Part shown: piece after piece, positions 1-36,793 of the stretch
How the letters are laid out: the number at the start of each line of letters is the position of its first letter
How positions within the stretch are numbered: position 1 is the stretch's first letter
DNA from: a virus
Lineage: Duplodnaviria > Caudoviricetes
DNA: 36,793 bases
Direction: 5' to 3' (one strand)
IMG/VR virus record: IMGVR_UViG_3300008255_000257
Coordinates: 1-36,793 of that record
Notes under the pieces: generated by a model
Database searches by the model: none
The model's input: the letters and a program-made list of their open reading frames with translations, nothing else
What the model was told of the DNA's origin: nothing
Translations under genes and position numbers: made by a program

Positions 1-1188
1 AATACCGACGTTGCCGTCGTTGGCTATTGTCAAAAGCTGAGAATAGGAAGGTGAGCCAGAAGATATATCGAATCCGCTTGCACGTTCTATATAAAATTTA
101 GAAGTATCCGTTTTTATCTGAAACGCAGTGGCATTATTTCCACTACCAGTAGTTCTAAAAAATGCAAGTCTTGGATTTTGGTCTGTTGTCGAGGGAATTA
201 CAACTCTAGATTCATCCCAACCAGAATCTGATAAGAAATCAGCGATACCAAAAGGATTATTTGTCCCTTGTGAAGGTGAGCCTACAACTATGCTCCCATT
301 TACATCGAGTTTTCTCTGAGGTGCCGTCGTCCCGATACCGACGTTGCCACCGTTTTTGATTGTCACATAGTTATTAATTTCCCCTGTTGACAAATATCGC
401 CCAAAAGTTAAATCTATTTCATTATTTGCTGTAGTTTTACTTTGGATAAATGAACCATCATGAGAAGATAAAGCACCAGATGCGCCCCAAGTTCCTAACC
501 TTATCAAAGAATATGTATTTGCTGTACCAACTCCGTTGTTCAAAATGTCCAGCCCACCAGTATAAGTCCTAACATCAACCGCACTATTATCCGTATTATC
601 ATATAAAGACAATTTAGACACCGGACTCACCGTCCCTATACCGACGTTGCCTGAGGTGTTGATTGTTAGAAACGGGTTCGTTCCACAGGTTGTACCATCT
701 CCTATTTGAAAGAGGTCGTCATCGACACTATCAGCATCTTCTGTTACGCCTGTCCAAAAATCCGTATCAGTTGCAGTGGTGACATCGTAAATTAAACAAG
801 GGTCGGCTTTTTTAATTGTGATGTTTCCTGCTGAAGAAGCGGAGATTGTGATTGTACCAGTATCTATATTGTCAAAATAACCGTTTGCCCAGCGGACACC
901 AGAAGAGCCTATGTCGTCAGTGGAGTCTGTATCGCTTATTAGAGAAGTGTTTATGGCCACGGAGGCTAGATTAGACAATGCTGTATTTGCTCCGGTGCCT
1001 GCAGGGGTATCATATGAGTAAGTAAAAGGCGAATCGTCAGAAATCTTTAAGTATTTTCCAACATCGCCAGCTGTAGCGGTGCCTTTACCTGTGCCTCCTT
1101 GAAATGGAAAAAGCACGGTGGCGGCTTGGCTGATTCCGAAAGTTAATAAAAATCCTAAGACAATAATTCCTATGTATTTTTTTTTCAT
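1..1188 (-). CDS. GNVGIG-repeat fibre/adhesin-like protein, N-terminal part (runs off window start), with predicted Sec signal peptide
   Basis: Not in the ORF track because there is no stop in the window. Hand translation from ATG 1188: MKKKYIGIIVLGFLLTFGISQA-ATVLFPFQGGTG...ANTALSNLASVAINTSLISDTDSTDDIGSSGVRWANGYFDNI...GNVGIGT; three in-frame GNVGI repeats. Confidence 0.85.
   Translation of the reverse strand, partial: MKKKYIGIIVLGFLLTFGISQAATVLFPFQGGTGKGTATAGDVGKYLKISDDSPFTYSYDTPAGTGANTALSNLASVAINTSLISDTDSTDDIGSSGVRWANGYFDNIDTGTITISASSAGNITIKKADPCLIYDVTTATDTDFWTGVTEDADSVDDDLFQIGDGTTCGTNPFLTINTSGNVGIGTVSPVSKLSLYDNTDNSAVDVRTYTGGLDILNNGVGTANTYSLIRLGTWGASGALSSHDGSFIQSKTTANNEIDLTFGRYLSTGEINNYVTIKNGGNVGIGTTAPQRKLDVNGSIVVGSPSQGTNNPFGIADFLSDSGWDESRVVIPSTTDQNPRLAFFRTTGSGNNATAFQIKTDTSKFYIERASGFDISSGSPSYSQLLTIANDGNVGI
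5..651 (-). repeat. Dispersed in-frame repeat GGCAACGTCGG(T/C)ATNGGGA encoding GNVGIG, at 5-15, 338-348 and 641-651 (4th copy 36768-36778)
   Basis: Plus-strand ccgacgttgcc is identical in all four copies; spacings are 303 and 333 bp and the intervening sequences are unrelated. Confidence 0.9.
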
Positions 1189-4097: not shown

Positions 4098-5695
4098 AGT
4101 ATTTTTACTCTATAGTTATTATAAAAAATATGGCGACTACTTGAAGTATTTACTCCTTGTTTTGAACCAAAGTGAATTATTGGAGTATCTGTGCTTCTAG
4201 GTATTGAAGAAGTATGTGTTGCAACTAATGTGTCATTTACATAATATTTTACATATCCAGTATTTGCTGTTGTAGTATAATAAATTTTTGCGCGAATATC
4301 ATAGATAAAAGGGCTTCCTGAATCTCCATTAGCATCTCCAGTCAATTCTATTTCAATACCTGTTATTTCTTCCCATGTGCCTGTACTGAAACCAAAAGTG
4401 GTTAAATTAAAAGGATAAAGTTGTTGGTCTGCATAAATAGCAGTTACATCACAAATTTTCACAACAAAATTTGCATCACTAAAATCAGAAGCAGACCATG
4501 TACGTCCAAATGTATTATATTGACCACCTATTGTTACGGTTGTTTTTGAAGCTGTTAAATTTGTTAATTGTCCCTGAGTCCAAGTCGTGCCAGCATCCCA
4601 ACTAAAATAAATCGCTCGAGCATTATTTGAAGAATCAGATTGTGCATAAGTATTAGTATCTGCGTCATAAGCATTTGATTGGTTTGACCAGTTTGTACCT
4701 GAAGAGGCAGTTGGTCGTATAAATCCAGTATTTGAAATTGAAGGAAATGCAGCATAAGAAGTTTCAATACGATAATTATTAAAAATTGTATGTGTTACCA
4801 CACCTGATAAATCAGTTATATCTTGACTAGAGCCTTTACTGGCGCTCAACCCACTTCCAGAAGTAGCAAAAAGATTATCATCCCAATCAACAATAAATCC
4901 TACGTGCGAATCATGTAATACACGACCTCTTACAAAAGCTAGTATAGAAGATGGAACAGCTGGGATATTTGTGCCACCACTTTCAGACAATCCCCAGAAA
5001 TAAGCTTTTCCCGCAAAACCGCCAGAAGCAGATAAACCTGTATCTGATTGTAGTCTTACGAAGTATTCAATATCATTCTCAAAATTAAACTCTACAGTTG
5101 ACTTAAATCCTAATGTCCCACTTTTTAATGACCACGAACCAGCCGTACTATATAGCACTGATGTTGTTAATAACTTTCTTGTTATAGTAGCATTACCAAC
5201 TGCTTCGGTTAAACCATCAACATTACTTCCTCTAAAAAGACCAAAGTTTATATCAGTAGTCGCTCCGTCAACGACATCAGATATAGATTTACCGTTAAGA
5301 GATAAATCAGTACCGTCAAAAGTAAGACTAGAAGTAGTTGACCCACCCACTCCAATACTTAATTTTGGTGTTCCTCCGGCATTACCTATCCAAAAACCTG
5401 TACCGGTATCATAGTCTGTCTGTCCTGAACGAATAAGTCCGTTTGAACCGATAATTAAAGAACCAGAAATTGTTCCACTTGTGGCTGTGATAGCTCCTCT
5501 AAATGTTCCATCATTTGCTTCTAAATCTCCTTCCGCTGTAATTCTCCAGCCAGAAACTCCAGTCTCAAAATTATCTGATTGGAGTGCTCTTTTTAAAATA
5601 TCAAAACCCACGCGCTTTAAAATACTTCGCAGATTGTTGTAGCTGTTTTTAAGGTAAGATAACTCGGGTTGAGGTTGTGGTTCTATGATTGCCAT
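4094..5695 (-). CDS. Tail fibre/spike (receptor-binding) protein
   Basis: G/S/T-rich beta-type protein with LQSDNFETGVSGWRITAEGDLEANDGTFRGAITATSGTI and GQTDYDTGTGFWIG motifs typical of phage fibres. Confidence 0.7.
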   Translation of the reverse strand: MAIIEPQPQPELSYLKNSYNNLRSILKRVGFDILKRALQSDNFETGVSGWRITAEGDLEANDGTFRGAITATSGTISGSLIIGSNGLIRSGQTDYDTGTGFWIGNAGGTPKLSIGVGGSTTSSLTFDGTDLSLNGKSISDVVDGATTDINFGLFRGSNVDGLTEAVGNATITRKLLTTSVLYSTAGSWSLKSGTLGFKSTVEFNFENDIEYFVRLQSDTGLSASGGFAGKAYFWGLSESGGTNIPAVPSSILAFVRGRVLHDSHVGFIVDWDDNLFATSGSGLSASKGSSQDITDLSGVVTHTIFNNYRIETSYAAFPSISNTGFIRPTASSGTNWSNQSNAYDADTNTYAQSDSSNNARAIYFSWDAGTTWTQGQLTNLTASKTTVTIGGQYNTFGRTWSASDFSDANFVVKICDVTAIYADQQLYPFNLTTFGFSTGTWEEITGIEIELTGDANGDSGSPFIYDIRAKIYYTTTANTGYVKYYVNDTLVATHTSSIPRSTDTPIIHFGSKQGVNTSSSRHIFYNNYRVKIL

Positions 5696-11006: not shown

Positions 11007-11050
11007 CTTCATCACTTTCGTTTCTCTTGCGAGAGCTTTCGCTGATGAAG
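11007..11050 (-). ncRNA. Compact four-way-junction RNA element with three GNRA tetraloops (5' leader)
   Basis: CUUCAUC-[AGC GAAA GCU]-[CUC GCAA GAG]-AA-[AC GAAA GU]-GAUGAAG, ending 7 nt before AUG 10999. Confidence 0.6.
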
Positions 11051-11092
11051 TGTTAAACAAACATTAATAATACTTGCCCGCCCTTTGGCAGG

Positions 11093-11641
11093 CTATCGGC
11101 CAAGCGCATTATCAGCGCCGGGCTTCGTGTTACTTTCTATCCTATCCCTAGAAAGTGCCACCAAGGTCTGATTAAGAGATTGACGAATAATTTTTGCAAC
11201 AGAAACAGGAAGGTCAATATAGGTATTAGTGGGTAGGTCTAATCTATATCCATTAAGTGTTACAGAATACGGCACCTTAGGATCAGAACCCTCAGGAAGT
11301 GGAATCATAGTGAAAACCTTTGTCTCAGATAGGAGAAATCTTTTCATTTTTTCAGCTTTACTACCCTTATCTGGGTCAGTTGCTATTTCACTATTAGGAT
11401 AAGTCCAAAGTGGAGTGTTATTTACTTTCTTATACTGAAATTTGCGTAAATAATCTTCTTCCTCCTCTTCGTCTTTTACTTCCTCTTCTTCTACTTGAGC
11501 TGAAGATTTTAGTCTTTCAGGTGCTTCTTCTTTACTAGAGTCTTCTAAAGACTCATCATTTTCTTCTAGGAGGTCTTTTTCCTCCTCTTCGTCTTTTACT
11601 TTAGCTTTTTTAGGAGCTAATTTTTTGGGAATTTTAGCCAT
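11093..11641 (-). CDS. Hypothetical protein (head module), basic then acidic N-terminus
   Basis: 182-aa ORF directly after the MCP. Confidence 0.7.
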   Translation of the reverse strand: MAKIPKKLAPKKAKVKDEEEEKDLLEENDESLEDSSKEEAPERLKSSAQVEEEEVKDEEEEEDYLRKFQYKKVNNTPLWTYPNSEIATDPDKGSKAEKMKRFLLSETKVFTMIPLPEGSDPKVPYSVTLNGYRLDLPTNTYIDLPVSVAKIIRQSLNQTLVALSRDRIESNTKPGADNALGR

Positions 11642-13440: not shown

Positions 13441-13561
13441 TGAAATTTCAGAAATGGCGAGAAAACTGAAATTTCAGACGGATAATATAGGGTAATTATA
13501 TACCCAGACTTATTATCAACGCAAATGTGGATAACAAGTCTGGGTATACAATGCGGGTTAT
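13441..13561. promoter_or_regulatory. Regulatory intergenic region: twin palindromes TGAAATTTCA and a long hairpin containing a DnaA box
   Basis: TGAAATTTCA at 13441-13450 and 13467-13476; inverted repeat 13495-13552; TGTGGATAA at 13526-13534. Confidence 0.65.
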
Positions 13562-18693: not shown

Positions 18694-21231
18694 TTAATAA
18701 GGATCAAAGTTATTATTAGCAATATCACTAGCACCCGAGCTACCGGAAGGCGCGTTGTTGCGCTCGCGGAGTTGGAAAGGGATATGTTTTGGTTCGTGAA
18801 GGATGAGTCGGTGGAGGTTCTCCGGCATGTGGTCATTCTTGTCTTTCGGCCGACCGGATTTTTGTTTATCGTCTGCGCTAGTGCCTTTATATTCGGCCCA
18901 GACATATTCTTCTAGTTGTTTAATTGTAACAGGGCAGGAGTCAAAAATAAAGATTTCTGGTTCTTTTACGAATTTTCCGGCTTTAATTTCATAATCAAAG
19001 GCATCTTCTAGGCGTTTTATACCGGCCATGAGGTCTTTACTACCTTTAATCCAACGCTCCCGAGAGATATCTACTATTTGGCTTCCTACACTTGGCTCTT
19101 TTGTATGCTGGTTATCATTAAAAGCTGAAGGATCAATGATTCTGTCTTCAATGCGAAAGTGCATTTTTGTTTCCAGTTCTATCATTCTTGAGTTGAGCAT
19201 TTTTACTAAGCCTTCAGATAGAAGTTCGGCGGTTACTATTTTAGTACCTTTACTATTGACAGAAAGATACAAAACATGGTCTTGAACTCTGGGGTGCGGA
19301 TCGAGCGCTTTGTATGTTGTCCAGTCTTTTTCGTTGATAGGAAAAGGTTTTATGACATGAATTTTTCTATTAAATCTTTTATGTACTCTACCGAGTAAAT
19401 GGCCAAATTTTCCAAATATGCGCGCTTCTTTTTCATCTTCCGGCATAGAATCAGACATTCTTTGAATTGCTTTATGATCTAGAATTCCTCTTACTCCGTG
19501 GATTTTACAGTTACCAGTAATAAGAGGATATTTTTCTGTTTTATCCCTCACAATAATTGTTTCATTATCAACAGAAACACAAGACACTATCCCATTATAA
19601 AAAACCTTCTTTATACCTCTATCCACATAGGAATATCTATGTTTAAGAGCTGAAACACAATACATATCAGCACAAAAATATTTTCTACCCATTATAAATC
19701 TTTCCCCTTGCTTCCACTTTCTTAGAGAGGCTCTATACCCTAATCTTATCAGTAATTCTTGAACATCATCAGCTAGTTGTTTAGAGGAAGTTAAATATCT
19801 TTTTTTAGAATCTCCATCGGTAATTAAAAGTGTCTCCCAAAGTAATTGAAGATATTCTTTTGGGTACTCAAAAACATACCTTGGTATATGTTTTTGCGCC
19901 GAATTTCCTAAGGAAAAAAGATTTTGGTGTAATTCTTTACTAGATAACCAATATTCATATTTTCTTTCTCGCCAAGCCCATTTAGTTTTATCCAATAACT
20001 CCTTTAATTTCTTTCTTTTTTCTATGTGTTTTTGAGTAATATAAATACCATAATGCTTTTGGGTGCTTCCCTTAGTGCCAGTAGCACAACCCTCAGAAAT
20101 ATACCAACCTAAGAATTCACACCAATCTTTTCCACTAATTTTGTCAGGAAAAGGGGAATCAAATCGAGTTGCCACATAACCATTTTCGGAAAAATTTAGC
20201 ATTCGGACTCCACGACGCAAAGTGTCAGCTCGCCTTATTTCTAAAGGCATATTTTTTATTGTTCTTTTTTCTCCTAAATCACTATTAAAAGTAACCATTC
20301 TATGATCGGGAGTGAAAAGAAGACCGTCTCCAGTAGAAATAAGTTCCCCAGAGAAATTTTTTTTAACTAATTCATTTACTTTTTGATATTCAATTAGTCT
20401 ATTTTTTAAATTATAGGTGGCTACTATATCCCCAATCTGAACCTTGTCTAAATCTCTCCAGCCTTGATATGTCAATATTTCTGCGTTATCGGCAAGACAA
20501 GCATCTTCTACTTCCGCTTCCACATATTCCGCTTCATCCGGGTGTTCGTCCATCCAGTCTTTTACCCAGCCGGCTTGAAATAGAGGCGTATAAGTCCAGA
20601 AACATATCATTCCCATACGACCTCGAGCAAGAGAGGCGAGAAATCTATCTTTAGGAAGAGGCTCATCAATCCAAAGAAATCCCAGATCAACGGATTCAAA
20701 GCTTTTCAGATCCTGTTCGTTACTCATTACGTCAATAGTCCAGCCGTTGTTGAAGATAAACTTTGAAGCATAATACTTTCCTTCTTTGGAAGTTTCATAT
20801 AGTTTCTCAGGGAAATTTTTATATGTGTTTCTTGGAAGCCATTTTATCAGCTCTGGTATTATTTTTTCTTTAATAGTTGTTGGATCAGAAATAACACGGC
20901 CACGCTTTATATATGGAAATTGTTGAAAAAGAGGATGTTTGAACCATTTATTCTGTGGACCAAAGATGATATTTGCCACAATATTAGATCCTACGGCCGT
21001 TTTACCTACCCCGTTAGCTCCAATAAACATGTTTACAAATTTAGAATCAGAGCCGACGAGTTTAATAAACTTCTCCACCTTGCCGTTTGGTGTATAATAC
21101 TGCGCGGCTTCCATAGCATCACGTTGTTCCAACTCCTCAGCCATTTCAGCTATTTCAGTCAGCTCTTCTTCCGGCAATTCTTCAAGCCGTTTTCGTATTG
21201 TATCTATTGAACTTAATATTTCTTCTTGCAT
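18694..21231 (-). CDS. terL: Terminase large subunit, intein-containing
   Basis: Walker A GANGVGKT, Walker B FLWIDE, coupling motif TYTP, and nuclease residues ALDPH...NDHMPENL. Confidence 0.9.
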   Translation of the reverse strand: MQEEILSSIDTIRKRLEELPEEELTEIAEMAEELEQRDAMEAAQYYTPNGKVEKFIKLVGSDSKFVNMFIGANGVGKTAVGSNIVANIIFGPQNKWFKHPLFQQFPYIKRGRVISDPTTIKEKIIPELIKWLPRNTYKNFPEKLYETSKEGKYYASKFIFNNGWTIDVMSNEQDLKSFESVDLGFLWIDEPLPKDRFLASLARGRMGMICFWTYTPLFQAGWVKDWMDEHPDEAEYVEAEVEDACLADNAEILTYQGWRDLDKVQIGDIVATYNLKNRLIEYQKVNELVKKNFSGELISTGDGLLFTPDHRMVTFNSDLGEKRTIKNMPLEIRRADTLRRGVRMLNFSENGYVATRFDSPFPDKISGKDWCEFLGWYISEGCATGTKGSTQKHYGIYITQKHIEKRKKLKELLDKTKWAWRERKYEYWLSSKELHQNLFSLGNSAQKHIPRYVFEYPKEYLQLLWETLLITDGDSKKRYLTSSKQLADDVQELLIRLGYRASLRKWKQGERFIMGRKYFCADMYCVSALKHRYSYVDRGIKKVFYNGIVSCVSVDNETIIVRDKTEKYPLITGNCKIHGVRGILDHKAIQRMSDSMPEDEKEARIFGKFGHLLGRVHKRFNRKIHVIKPFPINEKDWTTYKALDPHPRVQDHVLYLSVNSKGTKIVTAELLSEGLVKMLNSRMIELETKMHFRIEDRIIDPSAFNDNQHTKEPSVGSQIVDISRERWIKGSKDLMAGIKRLEDAFDYEIKAGKFVKEPEIFIFDSCPVTIKQLEEYVWAEYKGTSADDKQKSGRPKDKNDHMPENLHRLILHEPKHIPFQLRERNNAPSGSSGASDIANNNFDPY
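19510..20499 (-). mobile_element. 330-aa intein with LAGLIDADG homing endonuclease in TerL
   Basis: N-terminal CLADNAEILTYQGW, block B TPDHRM, LAGLIDADG motifs FLGWYISEG and LLITDGD, C-terminal ...LITGN followed by +1 Cys. Confidence 0.9.
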
Positions 21232-22582: not shown

Positions 22583-22819
22583 TTATAATTCCTTAAACGC
22601 ATCAGGACTTGAATCTTTTCCTCGATATTTACCAGTGTACTCCATTTCTCCATTTTCACTCCCTTCTTTGTGTTTTATGTACCCCTCTCGAATATAAAAA
22701 TTCACTTCTGCCCTACTTAAAACTAGAGGGTACCCGCCGAACATTATCCAGTTATTAGGTTGTACTTTATAATCCATAAATATTAATACCGGCAGCATGA
22801 TCAACTTCATGCTGTACAA
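22583..22819 (-). CDS. Hypothetical protein (start uncertain)
   Basis: ORF following def. Confidence 0.45.
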   Translation of the reverse strand: MYSMKLIMLPVLIFMDYKVQPNNWIMFGGYPLVLSRAEVNFYIREGYIKHKEGSENGEMEYTGKYRGKDSSPDAFKEL

Positions 22820-23228
22820 TAAACGCGTCGATCTCTTTGAAAGTCCTCCGGCGCGGGATCAGAAAGAGGTTGAAAAGGGGGGTTTGGTAGGTTACGGTGA
22901 TCTTGGCGAATCTATCTACTTCTTTCTCGGACCGGTACATGAAGCTCATACAGCCCTCAGAAAAGGTACAAGGTTGCTCTTTTTTGACTATCCTGGCGTT
23001 TATTACGCACCAGTGACCGAATGTTCGTATTTTCTTCTTATTCACCACAAAGAAGACTTTGGGGCTTTCTGAGACCTGTGTATGGGATATAGCGAAGGCG
23101 TCTTTCCAGTTGCCTTCAAATTCCTTAGCATCCAGGAAGGCTTTTAACTCTAGTGCCTCCTCTTTAATCTCAGACCATCTTTGTACCTTTTCTGATATTT
23201 TATTACTTAGGGGTTTTAGTATTTTCAT
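22767..23228 (-). CDS. def: Peptide deformylase (short viral type)
   Basis: EGCMS (motif 2), QHEVDH (motif 3), degenerate motif 1 AFAISHTQV, INARI. Confidence 0.85.
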   Translation of the reverse strand: MKILKPLSNKISEKVQRWSEIKEEALELKAFLDAKEFEGNWKDAFAISHTQVSESPKVFFVVNKKKIRTFGHWCVINARIVKKEQPCTFSEGCMSFMYRSEKEVDRFAKITVTYQTPLFNLFLIPRRRTFKEIDAFIVQHEVDHAAGINIYGL

Positions 23229-24764: not shown

Positions 24765-25823
24765 TTATTCTTCTTCTTTTTCCTCACTGATCTCCACTTC
24801 TTTATTTTCTTTATTTGGAAGCATGAGGTCTTTTTTTATTAAATCAACAATTTTTTCAGCGGTTTTAGGGTTTTCTTTCAGAAATATTCTTGCTTTATCA
24901 TAGCCAACTCCTAGCCTTATTTCTACTTTATCCTCAATAAAGAGATAGGAATGGCCAGATTTGGTGATGATTTTATATTTTTCTCCAAGGGCGAGAATCT
25001 CTCCTTGCTTTGAGATACCTTCACCATACATAATATCAAATTCTGTTTGGCGGAAAGGAGGAGCAACTTTATTTTTAGTTACTTTTACCCTTGTTCTATT
25101 TCCAACAGTTTCCTCTCCCTTTTTTATTTGTGCAAGTCTGCGCATATCCAGACGAACGGAACTATAGAATTTTAAGGCCTTGCCTCCAGTTGTAAACTCT
25201 GTGGGACCATACATCTGACCAATCATTTGGCGGATTTGGTTTAAGAAAATTACTACAGTTTTTGAATTACTGATTAAAGGTATAAGCTTACGCAGGCCAT
25301 GGGACATTAGTTTTGCGTGTCGGCCGACTTGAGGATCTCCCATATCTCCTTCTATTTCTGCTTTAGGGACCAAAGAAGCTACGGAATCAATTACCACTAC
25401 CGCGAACTTTCCAGTACGCACAAAGCTCTCTACTATCTCTAAGGCCTGCTCTCCGTTCTCTGGTTGGCTGATTAAGAGGTCTTTAGTGCTTACCCCTATC
25501 TTAGAGGCATATTCGGGGTCTAACGCGTGTTCTGTGTCAATATAGGCACAAAGACCACCTGATTTTTGAGCCTCTGCTACTGTATGCAGAGCTAGGGTTG
25601 TTTTACCAGACATTTCTGGGCCATATATTTCAACTACGCGTCCACGCGGAAATCCTCCTATTCCAAGCGCCATATCTAATCCAAATGAACCGGAGGGAAT
25701 AGAATCAATATCCATCGCTGTTTGGTTTAATTTCATTACACTATCTTCTCCAAACTTCTTTTTTATTTCCTTTATTGCATCATCTACACTTGCACCTATT
25801 TCTTTTTTTGATTTTTCTTTCAT
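24765..25823 (-). CDS. recA: Recombinase RecA
   Basis: [73 protein letters not shown]. Start is 25823 or 25859. Confidence 0.97.
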
Positions 25824-25842
25824 GTTCTTGCTTTTTAAATTT

Positions 25843-26298
25843 TTAATATTGAATTTCATTTTCTCTACCCTCAACTAGTTTTTTATTTAATTTCATAAAC
25901 TCAGTGATGGCATAATATGGGCTAACTTTTTCTCTTGACCTTTCTTCTAGGGCTTGGAATTCTTTTTCTCCAAGCCACATCAGCATATAGTCTTTATATA
26001 TTCCCTTTTTGTTTATTTCCCAGATTGCATGACATTCGGTACAGAGGGTTATACAGTTTTCCGGATCATATCTAGTAGCATATATTGTCCGACCAAAATA
26101 ATGAGAACAACCAAGGAATCTTGTTGAACCGCAAGCTACACATTGACTGTCCCTTTTTCTTATTTCTAAGGAAAATCTATGATCAGCTTCTTGAACCTGC
26201 CAGACATCTTTTATTTCTCCGGTAACTTCACGGAAATTTCTCATGCGTTTAAAAGCTTTTAGGGTAGAATTTTTAGTTTTAAATGGTGTTTTTTTCAT
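25843..26298 (-). CDS. NinG/Rap-like HNH recombination endonuclease
   Basis: [17 protein letters not shown]...CSHYFGR...[16 protein letters not shown]; likely start 26298. Confidence 0.8.
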
Positions 26299-26299
26299 T

Positions 26300-26530
26300 T
26301 TAAAATATCTTTCCTCCAAGCCAAAGAATGAAATAAATCCAACCCATAACAAGGGTATAGCCAAAAACAAATTCCACTACTGTTTCCTTGTTAATGGAAA
26401 AAAATAAAATAATAGGGATTAAAATAAGGGCAGCGAGAGGAAATAGTCCCCAGAGTATAAGTATTCCAAACACAAAGAATGCTTCTAAAAATCCCCTATT
26501 TATTTTTAATCCAGATTGTTTCATTTGCAA
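26300..26530 (-). CDS. Small multi-TM membrane protein
   Basis: Two to three hydrophobic segments. Confidence 0.55.
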   Translation of the reverse strand: MQMKQSGLKINRGFLEAFFVFGILILWGLFPLAALILIPIILFFSINKETVVEFVFGYTLVMGWIYFILWLGGKIF

Positions 26531-26861: not shown

Positions 26862-26911
26862 AGTATATAAAAAATAGCATAATGGTGTCAAGTAGTGTCA
26901 TATGTGGATAA
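26862..26911 (-). promoter_or_regulatory. Strong early promoter with direct repeats and DnaA box
   Basis: TTGACA(26891-86)-N18-TATACT(26867-62)-N6-ATG; GTGTCA repeats at 26885 and 26895; TGTGGATAA at 26903-26911. Confidence 0.7.
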
Positions 26912-26918
26912 CTTTTTT

Positions 26919-27281
26919 ATGAAAATAACAATACCAATTAAGCCCCTTTCAATCAACGATGCTCATTACGGCCGGCATGTTAAAACACGAACTTTTCGGC
27001 AATATGAAAATGATATTTTTTATTTACTTCCATATAATAGGACAGAGTTGAAGGAAGGAGAGTATTTTGTAAAGTATGTTTTTTATATTAAAAATTATAA
27101 AATATCTGATACAGGGAATTTTGAAAAGTTAATTACGGACCTTCTGGTCAAGCGCGGATATTTAAAAGACGATCGATATATTAAGGCTATGTATTTAGAA
27201 AAGGTGGCCGTCAAAGATATAGAAAATGAAAAGATTATTGCTAATATTGTCCCTTATAAAGACCGGAGAAAAATTTTATGA
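26919..27281 (+). CDS. rusA: RusA-family Holliday junction resolvase
   Basis: IPIKPLSIN, catalytic DTGNFEKLITDLL and DDRYI motifs. Confidence 0.85.
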   Translation: MKITIPIKPLSINDAHYGRHVKTRTFRQYENDIFYLLPYNRTELKEGEYFVKYVFYIKNYKISDTGNFEKLITDLLVKRGYLKDDRYIKAMYLEKVAVKDIENEKIIANIVPYKDRRKIL

Positions 27282-29547: not shown

Positions 29548-29799
29548 TTATAAATTTAAAGGTTCCTTAATTTTCAAAGACGCGCGAATATCATTTATAT
29601 ACCCGACACAATGGAGAAGAGATCGTATGTTACTGGCGATAGCACCCTTGGCGCCGATTATCTTTCCCATATCTTCTTTTGCGACACTGACAGAAAACAA
29701 CACACCCTGCTCATCCATACTTGCTTCAATTTCTACTTCTTCTGGTTTGGAGACTAACCCGGAGATCACATTATGTAGCCAATTTTTTACTTTGTCCAT
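29548..29799 (-). CDS. khpA: KH-domain RNA-binding protein, KhpA-like
   Basis: LVSKPEEVEI...SVAKEDMGKIIGAKGAIASNIRSLL; single KH domain with an intact GxxG loop. Confidence 0.85.
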   Translation of the reverse strand: MDKVKNWLHNVISGLVSKPEEVEIEASMDEQGVLFSVSVAKEDMGKIIGAKGAIASNIRSLLHCVGYINDIRASLKIKEPLNL

Positions 29800-29833: not shown

Positions 29834-32800
29834 CTAATCTACTTCATTTTGTGCAAGTTTTTTAAGTTGTTTATACACATCATCAGTAATTATTTTCTTT
29901 TTTCTGAGCTCTTTTATGTAGGCGTTTTTTTCTTCCGGTGTTTTCATATCCTTTGTTTGCTCGAAGATATATTCTGCGCGTTCACCATTTTCTACGCCCA
30001 TGTTTCTGATTTCAATATCTTCTTCGGTGATGCCAAGTTCTTCATCTTCTTTTAGTTTTTTTATTCTTCTATATAAAGGCGGATCATTTTCTTTGTATTC
30101 TTTCATTATTGCGTTGGCTTCGTCTTTTGGAAGCGCTTTCAGCCTCTCAAATTCTTTTTCAGCTTCTGATACTTCTTCTCCGATAAATTGTCTTACCACG
30201 GATGGCTTCAATGTATTTCCGAGCTTTCCTACTCCGCGAATTTTGTCGTCTTGTGTCCGGTCTCCGGTTGCTAGTGAGATTCCTATTTGCTTCAAAGCCA
30301 CGGAAATATCGCCGACAAGAGACATCAGAGGCGGTTCCGATGTGTATAGAGTAGGATCAAGCGCCCCGATGATAGAGAGCGAATCACGCGCCGCTTTCCA
30401 AGCCACTTCTTCCATGAAGTTTCTGTCCTTTCTGCGCTTTTTTCTTTCCATAAATTCGTAGGTGGCGAAAACGATGGTGGCCGTTAGTAAAACAGCTCTT
30501 AATGTCTCCCTTCCCTCCCGAGAATTAAGTGGCACTTTGCGGGTTGTTAGTTTTCCGATGTCTGAGAGTGTTGTTGAGATGATAGGCAATGCCCAGCTCT
30601 TAAACTGCGTGTATCCTTTTCCTATCGCGGTCTGGCCATAAATTGCTTTTGTCCCCATGCCACCGGTAGGCAACTGCCGCGCCATACCTTTTTTAATAAG
30701 CGCGAGCCGGTCAAGGTCTATGGCTCCCGAGGTCCATTCTGCCTTACTCATTGAGCCAAGGAGAAAAATAGAGTTAGCGTTGCGCGAGGCGTTTGAGAAA
30801 AGTCCGTATAATCCGACTTCCACTTTATCCCCAAAGCGCGCGGCCGCATCAAGGAAGGGCTGTCTAGCCAGTTCTCCCACCAGCGCTTCGTATTTCTTCG
30901 CCACGGCGCGTCCTTTGGGAGTCGCAAAGCGTTTTACTCCCAGCGCATACATTTTCTCTCCCAACCCCTTATAAACAAGCACTTGCGCGCCGGCTTGCGA
31001 GGTAAGTCCGACAGGGATATTAAATCCGAGAAAGAGTAATCGGGTAAAAGCTGTGCCGGTTCTCACCACCCAATCTAATTTACCTCCGGGCTTCAAGAAA
31101 GCGCGATCGGTTACACGTCCTTTTTGCGTGTTCATAAATTCCTTATAGAAACTCTTTAGTTGAGCGTCAAATTCCAGTCCTCGCGCGGTTGTCGCTAGAG
31201 AGTTTACAGAGTCAATGATTGCTTGATATTTTGGAAAGATAACATCCATGGCGCGCTTGCGGTTGAGCACCTCTTTATAAATCATATATGCCCTTGCGAC
31301 ATTTTTTGAAGGCACGAGCTGTCCTGTGCGCTTCATAGAAAATTGAAACCATTTTTCAAGAGGCAAGACTTCGCCTGTGCGCTGGTTCAAGATACCCGCT
31401 ACCGCTTCATCTTGCTTATACCTATCGAGAAATTCCCTGAAAGCCGCGCGCGCGCCTCTACCTGATCTTCTCCAGAATCCCGGCTTCTCTCCGGAAACCA
31501 CCCCGGCGACATAAGTCCCTTCCTCTTTCCATGCTTCTAAGAATGAGCGACGAATATGTGTGATATAATTTTTTACATATCGTGTCAAGGTGCCCTTTCG
31601 CAGGAGGTCGTCTCGCTCCTTTGCTAAGTCTTTCCAAATCCATTGCGCCGCCTTCAACTCAGCTGGGGTCATATCCTTTGCATATAATAGCTTGTCTTCC
31701 GGTCCAGCGGATAGCCAACGATAAGCAAGATCGTCTGTCGGAACGAGCCGTTCTACAAGCCCTCGTTTGCGAGATTTTCGTGCCGCCTTAAAGAGTTCAT
31801 TGACCGTCTCCCGCGCTTCAAGCGTTGCCATACTGGACGCTAAATCCGCTTTGTATATGTCGTGGATCATTACTTCAAAGAGCGGATTTTGACGTACAAG
31901 AGCGTTGCCCCCCATGTAGTTCCACTTTTCGTCGTGTTGGATGCTTGTCAATTCAGAAAGTTTAACCGGTGGTTTTCCTTCCAAGGCCCGCAATTTATTA
32001 ATGTCTTCAAGCGAGCGAGCAACTGCTTCTCTTCGTGTAAAGATACCGGCGAGGCTAGTGTTTTTGAGAGTCTGGAGCGTTCTCGGACCAAGAAAGACGT
32101 CTCCCTTTTCAAATTGTCGCAGGAATTCATCAAACTCTCTCATCTGATCAATAGTCATTTTTTCAAAGGAGTTCGGCATTTTGAGGAGTTTGCGGGCGTT
32201 TTCCCACTTTTTTAATTCCAAGTCGTTGATAGTGGCTTGCAGGGCAATACGCGCTTGGCGGTGGAGTTCCCTTTTTTCCAGGTAACCAGCCATGTATCCC
32301 TTAAAGGTTTCAGTGTTGAGAGCGTAGATTTCATCGTCTGTTAATTCTTCCAGCGCTTTTCGGGCGTTGGTTCTTTGTTCAAGAGCAAGCGTTTCCAAGA
32401 GTTCGGCTTTTTTCATCAGGGCGAGTTCTGCGCGCTTGGCAGTTGCCATTTTTTCCAACGCCTTCCTTTCTCTGGCTGTAGTGAGATATTTTTCTATTTC
32501 TTCTCTTATGACATCCGGGTCGTCAAACTTCCCAGACAATTCTGGTCTGTCTTCAAAGGCGCTTTCAACCGCTCTGGTTACTTTTAAATTTCTTGCTTTT
32601 ATTGCTTCTCTTTGGCGTTCAGTGTATTTAAATTTACCCATACTATCCACAGCGTCAGGGTTCTTTAATTCTTCAAATTGCCCTTCTTTTTTAGATTGAA
32701 ATTTGATTAGTTTCTTACCGGGCATAGTGTCCTCTACTTCTCTGATAATTTCCAGTTGGACCTTGATGTCATCCAACTCTTTAGAAGCTTTTCCAATATC

Positions 32801-35119
32801 ACGAGGACCCAGCGCCTTTATTTTGCTTCCGAGTTCTTCAAGCTGTTTTGTCGTTATATCTTTAACTTCGTCTAACTCTTTCTGCACTCTCGGCCCAAAA
32901 TCCTCCCCAGCCCGAGCTCGAGCAGCCGCACTCTCCACCGCTCCAGCCGTGCCTTTTTTAGGAAACTTTGGTGGTGTGGTGGCGATGAATTCTTCGGCGG
33001 ATTTTGGTTTTACTGCTTCCACCCCATCCCACTCTGCTCTTAGTTGGGAGCGTGTTTTGATTACATCTGGATTAAATACTGCATAGTGTGTTGAAGGTCT
33101 ATTATATAAGCCAACAGCGTCATCTATGTTTTTTATTTTAAGCCCAGTTTTGTTTAGTTTTCTAGCTTTTTCAACTTGTTGACTTAACCAACTATCAATA
33201 TCTCCGTCTTGTCCTAATTCTTGTGGTGTTTTTCCTTTAGCATCAACTTCCAAGAAATCCCCTTTAATTGATACATCTTTAACTTTTGCATTTACTCTGC
33301 GGTCGTATGTTGCATCATACCCACCCAAATCGTCTATCTTTTGTGTCAACTCATCCACTTTCAACCAGTCGGAGTTTTTGCCACTTTTTTGTGCAATCTT
33401 TTCAAGTGCGGCGTGTTGTTTCATTAGTTTATTTATTGGACCAGTTTCGGCGGCATATATAGAATATGCTTTAGCAGTAGCAGGGTCATCAGTAAACCAA
33501 AACGCCCCCTTTGCACTTTGAGCATCTGTAATACTACCCTTAAAAGAATCACTAAACTTTTCAAAATCTGCGGCAGTTCCGTGATAAGCATTTATTTCCC
33601 CCTTCACCCACTCATCAAAAGATTGGCCAGAAGCTTTGGCTTTGGAGATGGAGGTAGAAAGCTCTGTTTTAGGCACAATCGCTGTTTCTGGGACAGTTTT
33701 TGGCGTTTCCCGCACACTAAAAGGCTCGCTCCCCCTAGTTTCCCCGTTAGCGGTGGCTTTTGATATTTCTTTTGGTTTAAAAAGCGGATTTTGTTTACCA
33801 TTGATAGTTTCTATTTCTTCTATCCTAACATTAATTTGATTTTTAGTACCAACTCTTTCTATTTTTATCATATCACCCATTTTCTGTTTCTCAAAAATAT
33901 ACTTATCCTCACTAAAGAATCTTTGACTTGCTTCTGAATTTTGTCTTCCTTTTATGCCATCTTCAAAAATATTATCTACAATAACAGTGAAAGGTAAAGT
34001 TTCTCCGTCTTTCGGCCTTACTTTGTATAAGTTAGGAGGGTCTATTACTTTATATTCCGCATTGGTTAAATTAGTTTTTACAACATCTCCCACTTTAGGC
34101 ATAATCGATGTCTCCGGCGAAGGTATTTCCACCGGCTTGATTGTGTTTGTTTTAGGATCATAGAAGCCGGAGGGTTGGGGAGCAGGCAGGGCAGTTTCTG
34201 ATTGTCTGGCTATGAAGGTCGCCGCTTCACCTCTTATGGCGGTTTCTACTCCCTCAGCTGTCGTGGCTTTTGCTACGTTATGAGCTGCGGCTTGAGCTAA
34301 TTCTTCCGGTAGGCCATACCTTATCATCGTAACCCTCGCTAGGTCGTCTGTGGTAGCTTCTATGAGTTCTTTTAGGGCTATTGAGGTCAGCTTACCTTTT
34401 CCACCTGGAAACCAGGCATCAGCCACGAATCCGGCTATTGCTAGCGTGATGCCGAGGTTGTTTTTTTCCCATGGAGTTGCTATTGGACTTTTTCTTACGA
34501 AGCCGTCTATGTCTTCCTTAATGTTCTGCCAAGATTTTGGTTTGTGTTTAAATAAAATATCCTCTATGCTTTTATATGTTTCAATATCTTTATAGACTAA
34601 AGTTTCTTGTTTAAAAGATTTTTCTGCATCTAATACTCGTTCTGTTTTTGGCTTTCCTATTCTTGAAGTATCTGTCAGGGCTTGTCTGATTGCTTCTTTA
34701 CTCGTATCTACTCCGAGAAGTTGCGCCGCTTGTTTATAGGGAGAATATTTAGAAGTGTAGGCGGCTTCTAGTATTGTTTTTCCGACAGAGGAAAATCCTC
34801 CTAAAATTAATCTAGGAAAGTCCACAGTCACGGCTTTAGCTATTTTAGCCGGTTGTTCTATAAGTTCTGTCACAGCTTGTTGTCCGGTAGTTTGTTTACT
34901 TCTTCTTTGGGCTTGGCTTTCAAAAAAAGCGCTTATTCCAGTTGCCACAGCTTCTGGTGTTTTTGTCAAGGTTGTAGAAACAAGACCTCCAGGTACGAAG
35001 GGTTCCGGTGGAGCGCTCATATCAAAAACGGGGATGGGCGGAGTTTCAATAAAGAATTTCTCCTTTACCTTGCTTCCCAGTTTCTTTATTTCATCCCTTA
35101 TGTCAAAAAGTTGTGGCAT
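29834..35119 (-). CDS. Large polyvalent internal virion/ejection protein with ADP-ribosyltransferase-like domain
   Basis: 1761 aa, largely helical; AYHGTAADFEKF...GAFWFTDDPATAKAY...YAVFNPDVIK resembles ART-PolyVal. Confidence 0.7.
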   Translation of the reverse strand: MPQLFDIRDEIKKLGSKVKEKFFIETPPIPVFDMSAPPEPFVPGGLVSTTLTKTPEAVATGISAFFESQAQRRSKQTTGQQAVTELIEQPAKIAKAVTVDFPRLILGGFSSVGKTILEAAYTSKYSPYKQAAQLLGVDTSKEAIRQALTDTSRIGKPKTERVLDAEKSFKQETLVYKDIETYKSIEDILFKHKPKSWQNIKEDIDGFVRKSPIATPWEKNNLGITLAIAGFVADAWFPGGKGKLTSIALKELIEATTDDLARVTMIRYGLPEELAQAAAHNVAKATTAEGVETAIRGEAATFIARQSETALPAPQPSGFYDPKTNTIKPVEIPSPETSIMPKVGDVVKTNLTNAEYKVIDPPNLYKVRPKDGETLPFTVIVDNIFEDGIKGRQNSEASQRFFSEDKYIFEKQKMGDMIKIERVGTKNQINVRIEEIETINGKQNPLFKPKEISKATANGETRGSEPFSVRETPKTVPETAIVPKTELSTSISKAKASGQSFDEWVKGEINAYHGTAADFEKFSDSFKGSITDAQSAKGAFWFTDDPATAKAYSIYAAETGPINKLMKQHAALEKIAQKSGKNSDWLKVDELTQKIDDLGGYDATYDRRVNAKVKDVSIKGDFLEVDAKGKTPQELGQDGDIDSWLSQQVEKARKLNKTGLKIKNIDDAVGLYNRPSTHYAVFNPDVIKTRSQLRAEWDGVEAVKPKSAEEFIATTPPKFPKKGTAGAVESAAARARAGEDFGPRVQKELDEVKDITTKQLEELGSKIKALGPRDIGKASKELDDIKVQLEIIREVEDTMPGKKLIKFQSKKEGQFEELKNPDAVDSMGKFKYTERQREAIKARNLKVTRAVESAFEDRPELSGKFDDPDVIREEIEKYLTTARERKALEKMATAKRAELALMKKAELLETLALEQRTNARKALEELTDDEIYALNTETFKGYMAGYLEKRELHRQARIALQATINDLELKKWENARKLLKMPNSFEKMTIDQMREFDEFLRQFEKGDVFLGPRTLQTLKNTSLAGIFTRREAVARSLEDINKLRALEGKPPVKLSELTSIQHDEKWNYMGGNALVRQNPLFEVMIHDIYKADLASSMATLEARETVNELFKAARKSRKRGLVERLVPTDDLAYRWLSAGPEDKLLYAKDMTPAELKAAQWIWKDLAKERDDLLRKGTLTRYVKNYITHIRRSFLEAWKEEGTYVAGVVSGEKPGFWRRSGRGARAAFREFLDRYKQDEAVAGILNQRTGEVLPLEKWFQFSMKRTGQLVPSKNVARAYMIYKEVLNRKRAMDVIFPKYQAIIDSVNSLATTARGLEFDAQLKSFYKEFMNTQKGRVTDRAFLKPGGKLDWVVRTGTAFTRLLFLGFNIPVGLTSQAGAQVLVYKGLGEKMYALGVKRFATPKGRAVAKKYEALVGELARQPFLDAAARFGDKVEVGLYGLFSNASRNANSIFLLGSMSKAEWTSGAIDLDRLALIKKGMARQLPTGGMGTKAIYGQTAIGKGYTQFKSWALPIISTTLSDIGKLTTRKVPLNSREGRETLRAVLLTATIVFATYEFMERKKRRKDRNFMEEVAWKAARDSLSIIGALDPTLYTSEPPLMSLVGDISVALKQIGISLATGDRTQDDKIRGVGKLGNTLKPSVVRQFIGEEVSEAEKEFERLKALPKDEANAIMKEYKENDPPLYRRIKKLKEDEELGITEEDIEIRNMGVENGERAEYIFEQTKDMKTPEEKNAYIKELRKKKIITDDVYKQLKKLAQNEVD

Positions 35120-35442
35120 TATTTTTTCGCTTTCTCAAACAACCCCGACCTTAATAATAAATAGTCCTCCTCGGTTAAAGTTTCGCCTCCTATTTTTACC
35201 TCTCCCTTGACTAGTCGCTCCGACATCTTTTTGTGCATGGCTTCGGCTACACTTCCTTTTACATCTTTTAGTGTTATTTGGCCTCCAGCTTTTTCTATTT
35301 CGTAATTATAAACTTGAATTAGGGTTTGGTATTCTTCGTAAGACATTGGCTCATTAGGATCAAAGAAAAGCACTACTCCACTAGATATTGTGGCAATGGC
35401 TACGATTGAAGTTATTATTTTTTTGATTTTGTCTTTTTCCAT
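35119..35442 (-). CDS. Hypothetical protein with N-terminal TM/signal segment
   Basis: KIKKIITSIVAIATISSGVVLFF. Confidence 0.65.
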   Translation of the reverse strand: MEKDKIKKIITSIVAIATISSGVVLFFDPNEPMSYEEYQTLIQVYNYEIEKAGGQITLKDVKGSVAEAMHKKMSERLVKGEVKIGGETLTEEDYLLLRSGLFEKAKK

Positions 35443-35445
35443 AAT

Positions 35446-36264
35446 TTATAAATAACTCGGGCAAAACTTTTGATAAAGATTTTTTTCCACAAATACAATA
35501 GAATTGGCGTATGATAATGTAGTTTCCAACCACGCATGCCTAAGTTGATTTTTCAAAGACACAATATCTGCCCCTCGAAGCAACATATTGGCGGTCATTG
35601 ATGCTCGGAGAAGGTGGGGAAATACTCGCTTAATAATTCCTGCTCTCTTGGAAATCACTTTGACCCATTTTCTCACATCCCCTGTAGCTAGTCTGTTTTT
35701 CTTTTGCAGGGTGGTAAATAAATAATCATCTTGCCCTCTTGGAAATTCGTTTAGATATTTGATGAGTATTTCAGTGCATTCTGGAGCGATTTGAGAGATA
35801 CCGTCTTTTAGCCCTTTGCCATTTATTACTCTTACAGCGTTTTGGGTGATGAGCACGTCTTTAACCTTCAACCGGCAGATTTCTAAATTCCTAATGCCGG
35901 AGTAAGCCAACAAAGACAGAAGTGCTTTTTGCCGAATATCTCGACAGTTGAAAATCATTGTCGTAATTTCCGCTTCAGTCAGAGTATTTTTAATTATCGG
36001 GCGAGGTCTTTTCTGTCTGCCAAATCTCACTGGTCTATCGATAAACTTCATATACTTTTCCACTCCAAGCATTGTGTTAAGTTTATGTGAATAAGAATAT
36101 CCCGAAGTGTACATTGCGCAGATATATTTTTCTGCTTCATCCACTGTGGGATAATCTCCTAAAACTTTCGACATTCTTCGATACGAGCCGACATAACTTT
36201 CTACCGTAACCATTTGTAATCCCTCACGAGCAATTAAAAACTGCTCAAATGCTTCTTTTTGCAT
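35446..36264 (-). CDS. Tyrosine recombinase (XerC/D-like size, no arm-binding domain)
   Basis: Catalytic set SGIR, GKGLK, HLLR, LRH and Y in ETTLSY; 272 aa. Confidence 0.92.
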   Translation of the reverse strand: MQKEAFEQFLIAREGLQMVTVESYVGSYRRMSKVLGDYPTVDEAEKYICAMYTSGYSYSHKLNTMLGVEKYMKFIDRPVRFGRQKRPRPIIKNTLTEAEITTMIFNCRDIRQKALLSLLAYSGIRNLEICRLKVKDVLITQNAVRVINGKGLKDGISQIAPECTEILIKYLNEFPRGQDDYLFTTLQKKNRLATGDVRKWVKVISKRAGIIKRVFPHLLRASMTANMLLRGADIVSLKNQLRHAWLETTLSYANSIVFVEKNLYQKFCPSYL

Positions 36265-36265
36265 A

Positions 36266-36368
36266 TAGTTTCTACGAAAAACTACTATTAAAAGTGGAAG
36301 AGCGACATATTCGTAGTATGTCGCCCAAGTTACCCTCCCCGACGGGAGACCACTTGGACATTATACCA
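36266..36368 (-). promoter_or_regulatory. Recombinase promoter and highly structured leader with complementary hairpin loops
   Basis: TGGTATAAT at 36368-36360; stems 36292-97/36350-55, 36302-09/36317-24 and 36266-71/36279-84; loops CUACGAA and UUCGUAG. Confidence 0.7.
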
Positions 36369-36418
36369 ATTCTATTGTATTTGTAAAAGAACAGCCAGTT
36401 TATAGACTTGTTTAGGTC

Positions 36419-36793
36419 TTAATTAGCCTGCAAAGGCGAAACTTGATACCACACCGAGCCGTTGGAAGCGACCACAACCACATCATCGGCTGTCATTACA
36501 ACATCCGCTCCACCTGCGGACTTGAATAAAGCATTGTTGTCTAAGGTTATGTTGTTTGCTCCTGTGTTGATTACAGTCATTATGCACCCGGTGTTGGCGG
36601 CCGCCGGAGCGGTAAATGTGTTGGTAGTGCCAGTTGTTACTGCTCCTGCAGAGGTGATTTGCTTAATGGTCCCACAGCCATCAGCTGTAATTGTGTTGCC
36701 TGCGGCGATAGTTTGGGCAGAAGGAGGATTAACAACGAATTTCCCTGCTGGAGCAGTGTTCCCGATGCCGACGTTGCCTTCCACTGTTAGCCC
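36419..36793 (-). CDS. C-terminal part of the GNVGIG-repeat fibre/adhesin-like protein (5' truncated by window end)
   Basis: Open to the window end: GLTVEGNVGIGNTAPAGKF...VINTGANNITL...SNGSVWYQVS; in frame with 1..1188 if the ends are joined. Confidence 0.8.
   Translation of the reverse strand, partial: GLTVEGNVGIGNTAPAGKFVVNPPSAQTIAAGNTITADGCGTIKQITSAGAVTTGTTNTFTAPAAANTGCIMTVINTGANNITLDNNALFKSAGGADVVMTADDVVVVASNGSVWYQVSPLQAN

Follow-up and report, generated by a model that had tools for sequence, protein, structure and literature searches.

Module exchange at a ~30-bp coding repeat in fibre/adhesin genes, and its linkage to a clade of XerA-like recombinases

A coding repeat of about 30 bp is an exchange zone where related fibre/adhesin genes switch to unrelated modules. 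The DNA analysed here (36,793 nucleotides, hereafter the window, meaning the whole stretch) is a 36.8-kb phage contig with a GC content of 38.7%, which carries four copies of this repeat. A preliminary description had proposed the repeat as a crossover site cut by a neighbouring recombinase: exchange, insertion and deletion, all in frame, do occur at the repeat, whereas a recombinase-driven cut at a fixed 11-bp site is not supported. The account that we favour, with moderate confidence, is that modules are shuffled by homology at the repeat, with the linked recombinase as an accessory that is not needed for swapping.

The phage, its fibre/adhesin gene and the repeat

The phage genes of the window include those for a portal, a major capsid protein, a terminase with an intein, RecA, RusA, a NinG-like nuclease, an endolysin and a 1761-aa polyvalent protein. 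Groundwater and aquifer runs contain DNA near-identical to the window, and the nearest named homologues of its recombinase are from Patescibacteria, which suggests a CPR host for the phage. Several further features were observed along the contig: the intein of the terminase (18694-21231) is of the LAGLIDADG type, the polyvalent protein (29834-35119) has an ART-PolyVal domain, genes for a phage peptide deformylase (22767-23228) and a KhpA/B-type KH protein (29548-29799) are present, and a near-perfect 26-bp inverted repeat with a 6-nt loop lies at 13495-13552, between a scaffold-like gene and the next ORF. The features related to module exchange are as follows.

1..1188, minus strand: N-terminal part of the fibre/adhesin gene, 396 aa, running off the contig; signal-peptide-like start, modules joined by GNVGIGTTxP
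622..651 (exact core 641-651), minus strand: repeat copy 1, ~30 bp
349..651, minus strand: module M1, 101 aa
319..348 (exact core 338-348), minus strand: repeat copy 2, ~30 bp
16..348, minus strand: module M2, 111 aa
1..15 (core 5-15), minus strand: repeat copy 3, cut by the contig end
36749..36778 (core 36768-36778), minus strand: repeat copy 4, start of the tip module
36419..36793, minus strand: C-terminal fragment, likely of the fibre gene, tip module with a Phage_depo_C beta-sandwich (PF25692, E=3.8e-6)
24765..25874, minus strand: phage RecA (PF00154, E=7e-121), a candidate helper of homology-driven exchange
25843-26370, minus strand: NinG/Rap-like junction nuclease (profile match)
26895-27281, plus strand: RusA-like junction nuclease (profile match)

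The C-terminal fragment is likely part of the same gene as 1..1188, with a presumed join across the contig ends; an identical recombinase is found on another contig of 37,407 bp, which leaves room for perhaps about two further modules in the gap between the window ends. The N-terminal part matches a PHROG tail fibre (E=2e-8), and the best PDB match of the fibre is Bd2133 (8ond, E=1e-4). The N-terminus of the ORF is hydrophobic (KD13 of 2.5, a hydropathy value read from sequence only), and such a signal-peptide-like start raises the possibility that the product is secreted and serves as a host-surface adhesin, not as a virion fibre. Hydrophobic N-termini are found in 19/30 recombinase-linked fibre ORFs, versus 6/64 viral controls.

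At the DNA level, the window holds exactly four exact copies of GGCAACGTCGG, all on the minus strand, and the last Gly codon is GGG in all three copies where it is visible, as had been described. The 303- and 333-bp modules are indeed dissimilar, BLASTP finding only the repeat and 'KL' in common. The identity of the four copies also exceeds codon chance (p=1.7e-4 for four copies sharing any one codon triple, given the window's own usage of GGC 0.22, AAC 0.37 and GTC 0.12). The conserved unit is however not the 11 bp originally put forward, but a stretch of about 30 bp that encodes GNVGIGTTxP and reaches the Pro codon.

Conservation of the repeat as DNA, beyond codon usage, extends to its homologues, where the consensus codons stand above the ORF background. 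Among 87 motifs near recombinases of the clade described below (one of the 87 comes from the window's own record), the consensus codon is present in 62 (GGC), 58 (AAC), 57 (GTC), 47 (GGC), 42 (ATC), 48 (GGG) and 46 (ACG) of them; elsewhere in these ORFs the background, in the same codon order, is 0.27, 0.36, 0.22, 0.27, 0.27, 0.13 and 0.18. Variation is nonetheless large: the exact 11-mer is found in 39/86 recombinase-linked motifs, and 23/49 recombinase-linked ORFs are devoid of any exact 11-mer. Viral loci fetched by a codon-free pattern display a weaker bias, with an exact copy in 42/243. At GC3 below 0.25, linked genes keep 4.0 of 6 consensus codons, versus 1.0 in unselected viral controls (p=8e-5), although lineage confounds this comparison.

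The codons are not uniform along single genes or across lineages. Within one gene, in each of L350, L353 and L355, the N-terminal repeats are free in their codons and the middle and C-terminal repeats equal the consensus. A second, G-rich codon form (GGG AAT GTG GGG ATT GGG) recurs in Patescibacteria and perhaps reflects a separate exchange pool. In addition, non-coding REP/MITE-like hairpins, whose arms are like the coding repeat at 18/20 positions, are located near Y1 transposase genes (L037:3396-3500 and 5239-5330; L132:10290-10390 and 11028-11125), and one of them interrupts the L132 recombinase. Such hairpins were considered as a general driver and rejected, with 0 exact in 200 genomes.

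Both contig ends fall at or next to the repeat, the left one inside a copy and the right one 15 bp before one. These breaks are no sign of variable modules; they are explained by the community-wide abundance of the repeat, whose summed contig depth in run X1 is 1703, versus ~11 on the phage. Four capsid relatives likewise end inside their own fibre gene.

Module exchange and the position of crossovers

Breakpoints between related genes concentrate on the repeat. When sharp ends are defined as the ends of segments of at least 100 bp and at least 97% identity, shared between or within GNVGIG ORFs, 89/193 of them fall within -6..+36 of the repeat versus 15.9 expected, at 37 loci. This set comprises 314/395 ORFs, kept after dropping contained ones, and both partners contribute ends to the count, so the ends are not independent. 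Three recombinase-linked pairs (L019/L046, L028/L029 and L041/L042) match at 99.5-99.8% identity from the repeat onward, tip and recombinase included, with unrelated DNA before the repeat; a fourth linked pair, L010/L044, is 99.7% identical over its first 663 bp. Rearrangements are also seen within genes. In G064, a genome without the clade recombinase, the modules are ordered A-B-C-B-A', the B copies being 99.7% identical from repeat to repeat; five modules distinguish L622 from L629, through gain or loss; and a set of records holds ~100%-identical modules in differing orders. The motif is present in 2-21 copies per gene, so that internal modules are permuted and duplicated.

Chimeric assembly at a repeat of ~30 bp is a caveat for these breakpoints, as is the non-independence of the pairs; against chimeras, the junctions 650|536 and 536|537 recur in separate records. 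Giant-virus (NCLDV) fibre genes (L606, L610, L636, L653 and L658, in G206-G210) follow the DNA consensus of the CPR genes and carry 100%-identical modules in different orders.

Runs related to the window hold variants of single modules. A 96.5%-identical copy of M1 (10 differences) reaches a depth of 9.8 in run X4, against 0-3 for the remainder of the phage, and runs X2 and X3 contain an 87% variant of the tip module with a different downstream neighbour. This variant (window 36419) is directly followed, by eye, by 30 letters like the start of another recombinase subtype (cf. L022). No variant of this phage in module number was seen in the contigs of runs X1-X4, a form of data that drops rare forms. 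M2 has a depth of 7.7 in X1, versus ~11 elsewhere on the phage; this low depth and two joints that bypass a stretch of a module, 177-319 and 363-613, were considered as module variants and set aside, as the joints are out of register with the repeats and probably derive from other organisms. An integrative element flanked by two repeats was likewise discarded, with motifs on one side only.

The position of the crossover within the repeat was read from 40 strict pairs (at least 99% identity on the shared side; 72 pairs at the 95% level). Before shared downstream DNA, the last mismatch in these pairs lies between -3 and +29; beyond shared upstream DNA, the first one lies between -8 and +29. This bears directly on a model in which a site-specific recombinase cuts a fixed point in GGCAACGTCGG and moves modules like integron cassettes, which we consider very improbable. 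The invariant 11-mer of the window and the recombinase linkage speak for it, as do a CGTC-N8-GACG dyad seen in the consensus and one L350 junction placed at or before +11. Yet the best single cut accommodates 29/40 pairs, or 30/40 with an 8-bp overlap, so that any one cut is contradicted by 10-11 of the 40. The five recombinase-linked strict pairs have crossover limits of +8, +17, +20, +24 and +11, and three of the four that share downstream DNA cross 3' of the 11-mer (last mismatch at +17, +20 and +24). The 23 linked ORFs without the 11-mer, and the shuffling without recombinase described below, further contradict a fixed-site recombinase as the driver. As a counter-point, four of the five linked pairs would allow one cut at or after +25, and a fixed cut could have been blurred afterwards by gene conversion. 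The observed spread fits annealing over an imperfect 30-bp homology; it does not fit the 6-8 bp overlap of a tyrosine recombinase within the 11-mer.

Homology-driven exchange of the RecA type, which the preliminary description had mentioned as an alternative, is thus the better fit, and RecA, RusA and a NinG-like nuclease are encoded in the window. The GNVGIGTTxP peptide would be the structural capping loop of trimeric beta-helix fibres, and would for this reason recur between domains (after the available text of PMC10769870). Any two copies of the repeat would then offer 20-30 bp of in-frame homology, at which relatives are observed to switch to unrelated DNA. As crossovers are seen anywhere in the repeat, they would proceed by annealing or strand invasion, presumably by RecA- or SSAP-type proteins. 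Repeated exchange and conversion may homogenise the codons, yielding the single G/C-ending consensus that is observed even in AT-rich genes; conversion is perhaps itself G/C-biased. The recombinase most likely uses sites of its own, and its observed linkage may mean that it moves together with the gene's most exchanged part or is retained next to it.

A homology of 20-30 bp is short for RecA. This, together with NCLDV records in which no RecA match was obtained, weakens the homology-driven reading. The strong recombinase linkage, the tighter codon consensus of linked genes and the lack of an observed module-number variant of this phage count against it as well.

The linked recombinase, its leader RNA and its possible roles

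The gene that follows the fibre gene downstream is, as stated in the preliminary description, a tyrosine recombinase on the same strand. It does not lie between two ejection-type genes as had been thought, but between the C-terminal fibre fragment and a 107-aa ORF, beyond which comes the 1761-aa ART-PolyVal protein; similar-looking small genes come after the recombinase in several phages. No cI-type repressor was found nearby, with 0 HTH/repressor matches among the 50 ORFs scanned. The features of this region are listed here.

35446..36264, minus strand: tyrosine recombinase, 272 aa, XerA-like, no arm-binding domain (PF00589, E=3e-22)
35119..35442, minus strand: 107-aa ORF with a hydrophobic N-terminus
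36360..36387, minus strand: sigma70-like promoter of the recombinase by consensus match (11/12, extended -10)
36264..36358, minus strand: structured 5' leader with a closing stem, a small hairpin and a long hairpin; covariation; not in Rfam
36366..36391, no strand: inverted-repeat arm that overlaps the recombinase promoter
35482..35507, no strand: inverted-repeat arm, codons just after the catalytic Tyr

The catalytic R-K-H-R-H-Y set is complete and the arm domain absent, as in XerA/XerCD, and R125, K150, H217, R220, H243 and Y252 are invariant in 73 homologues. Archaeal XerA is nearest both in structure (5hxy, E=2e-38) and by HMM (NF040815, 137.5 bits, the cut-off of 220 not being reached); XerC/D profile scores are far below cut-off and the IntI profile TIGR02249 gives 63.9 bits for a cut-off of 265. 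Judged from these matches, the recombinase belongs to an apparently intact, uncatalogued XerA-like clade (SH-aLRT support of 100 in a quick IQ-TREE tree of 90 rows).

Members of this clade (at least 36% identity) co-occur with GNVGIG genes, as had been predicted: the motif is found within 5 kb in 45/89 clade members versus 0/51 distant recombinases, after 181 loci were merged to 141 clusters and the window's record was removed. With at least 3 kb on both sides, the counts are 12/21 and 0/13, and a looser motif, with at least one false match, is found in 49/89 clade members and in 21/30 of those with at least 1.5 kb on both sides. By arrangement, 29 cases are upstream on the same strand, 8 convergent, 5 downstream on the same strand and 3 divergent. 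No major branch of the tree lacks linked members, which come from phages, Patescibacteria, Bdellovibrionota, Acidobacteriota and Bacteroidota. The recombinase comes after the fibre gene in phages whose layouts are unrelated, the adjacency is also seen in cellular chromosomes, and in the related viruses L039 and L047 the recombinase is on opposite sides of the fibre gene. Linkage across subclades in four arrangements, including this swap of order, makes hitchhiking alone a poor explanation.

Clade recombinases are also located beside a DGR-like reverse transcriptase and an Avd gene in Patescibacteria islands (L114:8007-9376; L037:13160-14356). Separately, two Patescibacteria GNVGIG/S74 proteins of 2,500 aa (L350:6672-14402 and L355:3757-11172) have two N-terminal integrase SAM-like domains, no catalytic domain and a likely membrane helix, and their genes are followed by a four-helix-bundle-like gene. 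Their SAM domains were considered as relics of the clade, an idea dropped at scores of only 7.6 and 3.6 bits.

The clade recombinase is not required for module swapping, as far as genomes and records that may be incomplete can tell. Among 200 Patescibacteria genomes (at least 60% complete, the centre G003 left out), 63 contain the any-codon motif, 23 the exact repeat and none the clade recombinase, the next best match being a generic Xer-like protein (E of 7e-30). At non-redundant viral loci selected by the consensus, a clade recombinase is nearby in 2/120 and 4/152; at codon-free viral loci it is found at 0/129 (flanks fetched for ~80/138). A module-sharing network that includes NCLDV yields PF00589 in 0/10 records searched, of which one is rated 100% complete and eight 'bounded', most being fragments. 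As a positive control, NCLDV capsid matches were obtained in 4/5 records; terminase was unsuitable for this purpose, as it gave no match in 5/5 records, one of them an ordinary phage. We take the NCLDV records to be prasinovirus-like. Finally, a fibre stretch of L482 is 94% identical to the window fibre, and no recombinase is found on its 26-kb record.

What the recombinase does can be read in several ways. It may be an ordinary phage integrase or dimer resolvase that acts on an att/dif-like site, such as the inverted pair formed by the promoter and the Tyr codons, and neighbours the fibre gene because of genome layout or of joint expression in lysogens. This we regard as improbable. Its XerA-like fold and size would suit such an enzyme, several clade members lie in defence-type islands without a fibre gene, no repressor was found, and the hydrophobic N-termini of linked ORFs would allow these to be host-surface cargo. 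However, layout does not explain why the two genes stay adjacent in phages of unrelated gene order and on cellular chromosomes, the inverted pair exists in only ~5 close homologues, and no inversion joint was found in X1-X4.

Another reading, doubtful but of more weight, is a 'shufflase' of relaxed specificity, which would join direct coding repeats by short homology and raise the exchange rate in the minority of genomes that carry it, the others relying on general recombination. It is favoured by the adjacency, which persists in four arrangements and in Patescibacteria, Bdellovibrionota, Acidobacteriota and Bacteroidota as well as phages, by the intact catalytic residues and by the tighter consensus in linked genes, and it is compatible with spread crossovers. 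There are precedents, as far as the available parts of the sources go: recombinases that diversify receptor-binding proteins adjoin their target (Rin, PMC6109161), and the tyrosine recombinase Int-pTN3 mimics homologous recombination on segments down to 104 bp (PMC5495485). On the other hand, the motif is absent at 9/30 clade loci with at least 1.5 kb on both sides, the nearest relatives of the enzyme are XerA-like and not pTN3-like, and shuffling occurs without it. An even broader view, tentative as a whole, is that the XerA-like clade is a dedicated 'shufflase', controlled by its RNA leader, that permutes adhesin modules in frame, the repeat being a universal joint to one pool of binding domains for Patescibacteria, predatory bacteria, phages and giant viruses.

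The leader of the recombinase mRNA, ~95 nt long with a folding z of -2.7, is a candidate new cis-regulatory RNA. Its long hairpin ends in a loop complementary to that of the start-codon hairpin. In 15 homologues, the mean complementary run is 6.4 between loops of the same leader versus 3.7 in crossed combinations (0/100,000 permutations), in a sample where one loop is mis-picked and several loci are closely related. This loop-loop pairing suggests translational control of the recombinase. RNAalifold on a MAFFT alignment reports only 5 pairs, the covariation having been tested by script, and a covariance model recovers, in 90 sources, only its 14 training leaders. The conserved leader is seen in the window and in L001, L002, L003, L004, L006, L008, L009, L025, L026, L028, L030, L031, L032 and L109. 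A role of the CCGACG loop of the leader as a guide was considered and rejected, since by eye it does not covary with neighbouring repeat codons.

In ~5 close homologues (window, L025, L008, L006 and L032), the promoter repeats the Tyr-codon region of its own gene, nearly exactly and in inverted orientation, possibly as an operator pair or an antisense promoter. Self-inversion of the recombinase between the arms was dismissed, as no joint was found in X1-X4 and convergent homologues retain the full C-terminus. The window's promoter arm matches the gene of L001 better than its own (24 versus 20), which makes a shared site likelier than a switch. A second small dyad (GAC-N7-9-GTC, then TAAAC) lies directly upstream of the promoter (window ~36384-36418, minus strand) in five close homologues including L025, L026, L032 and L003.

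Significance and comparison with known systems

The lifestyle of Patescibacteria and predatory bacteria depends on attachment to other cells, and the repeat provides a countable mechanism for adhesin variation, with one DNA consensus at a module-exchange repeat across bacteria, phages and NCLDV. Bacterial-type adhesin genes have been reported in giant-virus islands (PMC13620141), and Ostreococcus viruses have a hypervariable region, with no homologous recombination found genome-wide (PMC12906663), according to the available portions of both papers; the repeat offers a testable route for both the island adhesin genes and the hypervariable region. It also explains assembly breaks in fibre genes, so that their diversity is under-counted. 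If this enzyme does act on short coding homologies, it would represent a novel type of diversity generator. Within the main texts of non-subscription papers, supplements aside, neither 'GNVGIG' nor the recombinase linkage was found in the literature.

The preliminary description saw here a direct-repeat analogue of shufflons and integrons, a class assignment that fails for both. Shufflon recombinases include Rci and Min, in addition to Rin. As far as the accessible text goes, Rin of bifidobacterial prophages is an XerD-like armless tyrosine recombinase beside a receptor-binding gene, with an 11-bp repeat, as here (PMC6109161). The recombinase of the window likewise adjoins the variable gene; but the coding copies, in the window and at linked loci, are all direct and in frame, with no inverted sites or silent alternative C-termini, crossovers are not fixed (the best cut serves 29-30/40 pairs, of which only 5 are recombinase-linked), and the enzyme is dispensable. 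Integrons (IntI/attC) share the direct repeats and the insertion and reordering of units, but the units here are in-frame domains, not whole-gene cassettes, and the enzyme is not of the IntI family. Archaeal XerA and Int-pTN3 (PMC5495485 and PMC8371274) offer a further comparison. XerA is closest to the recombinase, which nonetheless scores below the XerA cut-off and forms its own well-supported clade, and the window enzyme is likened to Int-pTN3, a tyrosine recombinase able to mimic homologous recombination, by analogy only.

The fibres of the Bdellovibrio MAT family, in the part of the study available (Caulton et al., 2024, PMC10769870), have a signal peptide, beta-helix modules and swapped tips, and their modules are closed by a capping loop, V-G-G/N-pi-X-X-P-X-X-X-L. 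GNVGIGTTxP agrees with this consensus, and VGIGTxxPxxKL is present in every window copy; together with Bd2133 as the best PDB match, this gives a structural reason for the peptide to recur. That part of the study reports tip swapping and names no DNA repeat, mechanism or recombinase; the window gene, in contrast, is phage-borne.

A close parallel is with the motif hot spots of fibres and tailspikes (T-even gp37/gp38, Tetart 1998, cited in PMC10408124; Pas et al., 2023, PMC10408124), where, in the available text, conserved DNA lies at domain borders and unrelated binding modules are swapped across genera without a dedicated enzyme. Here too, breakpoints are concentrated on the motif and a dedicated recombinase is unnecessary, in genomes and records that may be incomplete. 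The present system differs in that the motif occurs 2-21 times per gene, with internal modules permuted or duplicated, and in that one near-exact consensus is common to Patescibacteria, phages and giant viruses and is accompanied by a linked recombinase clade.
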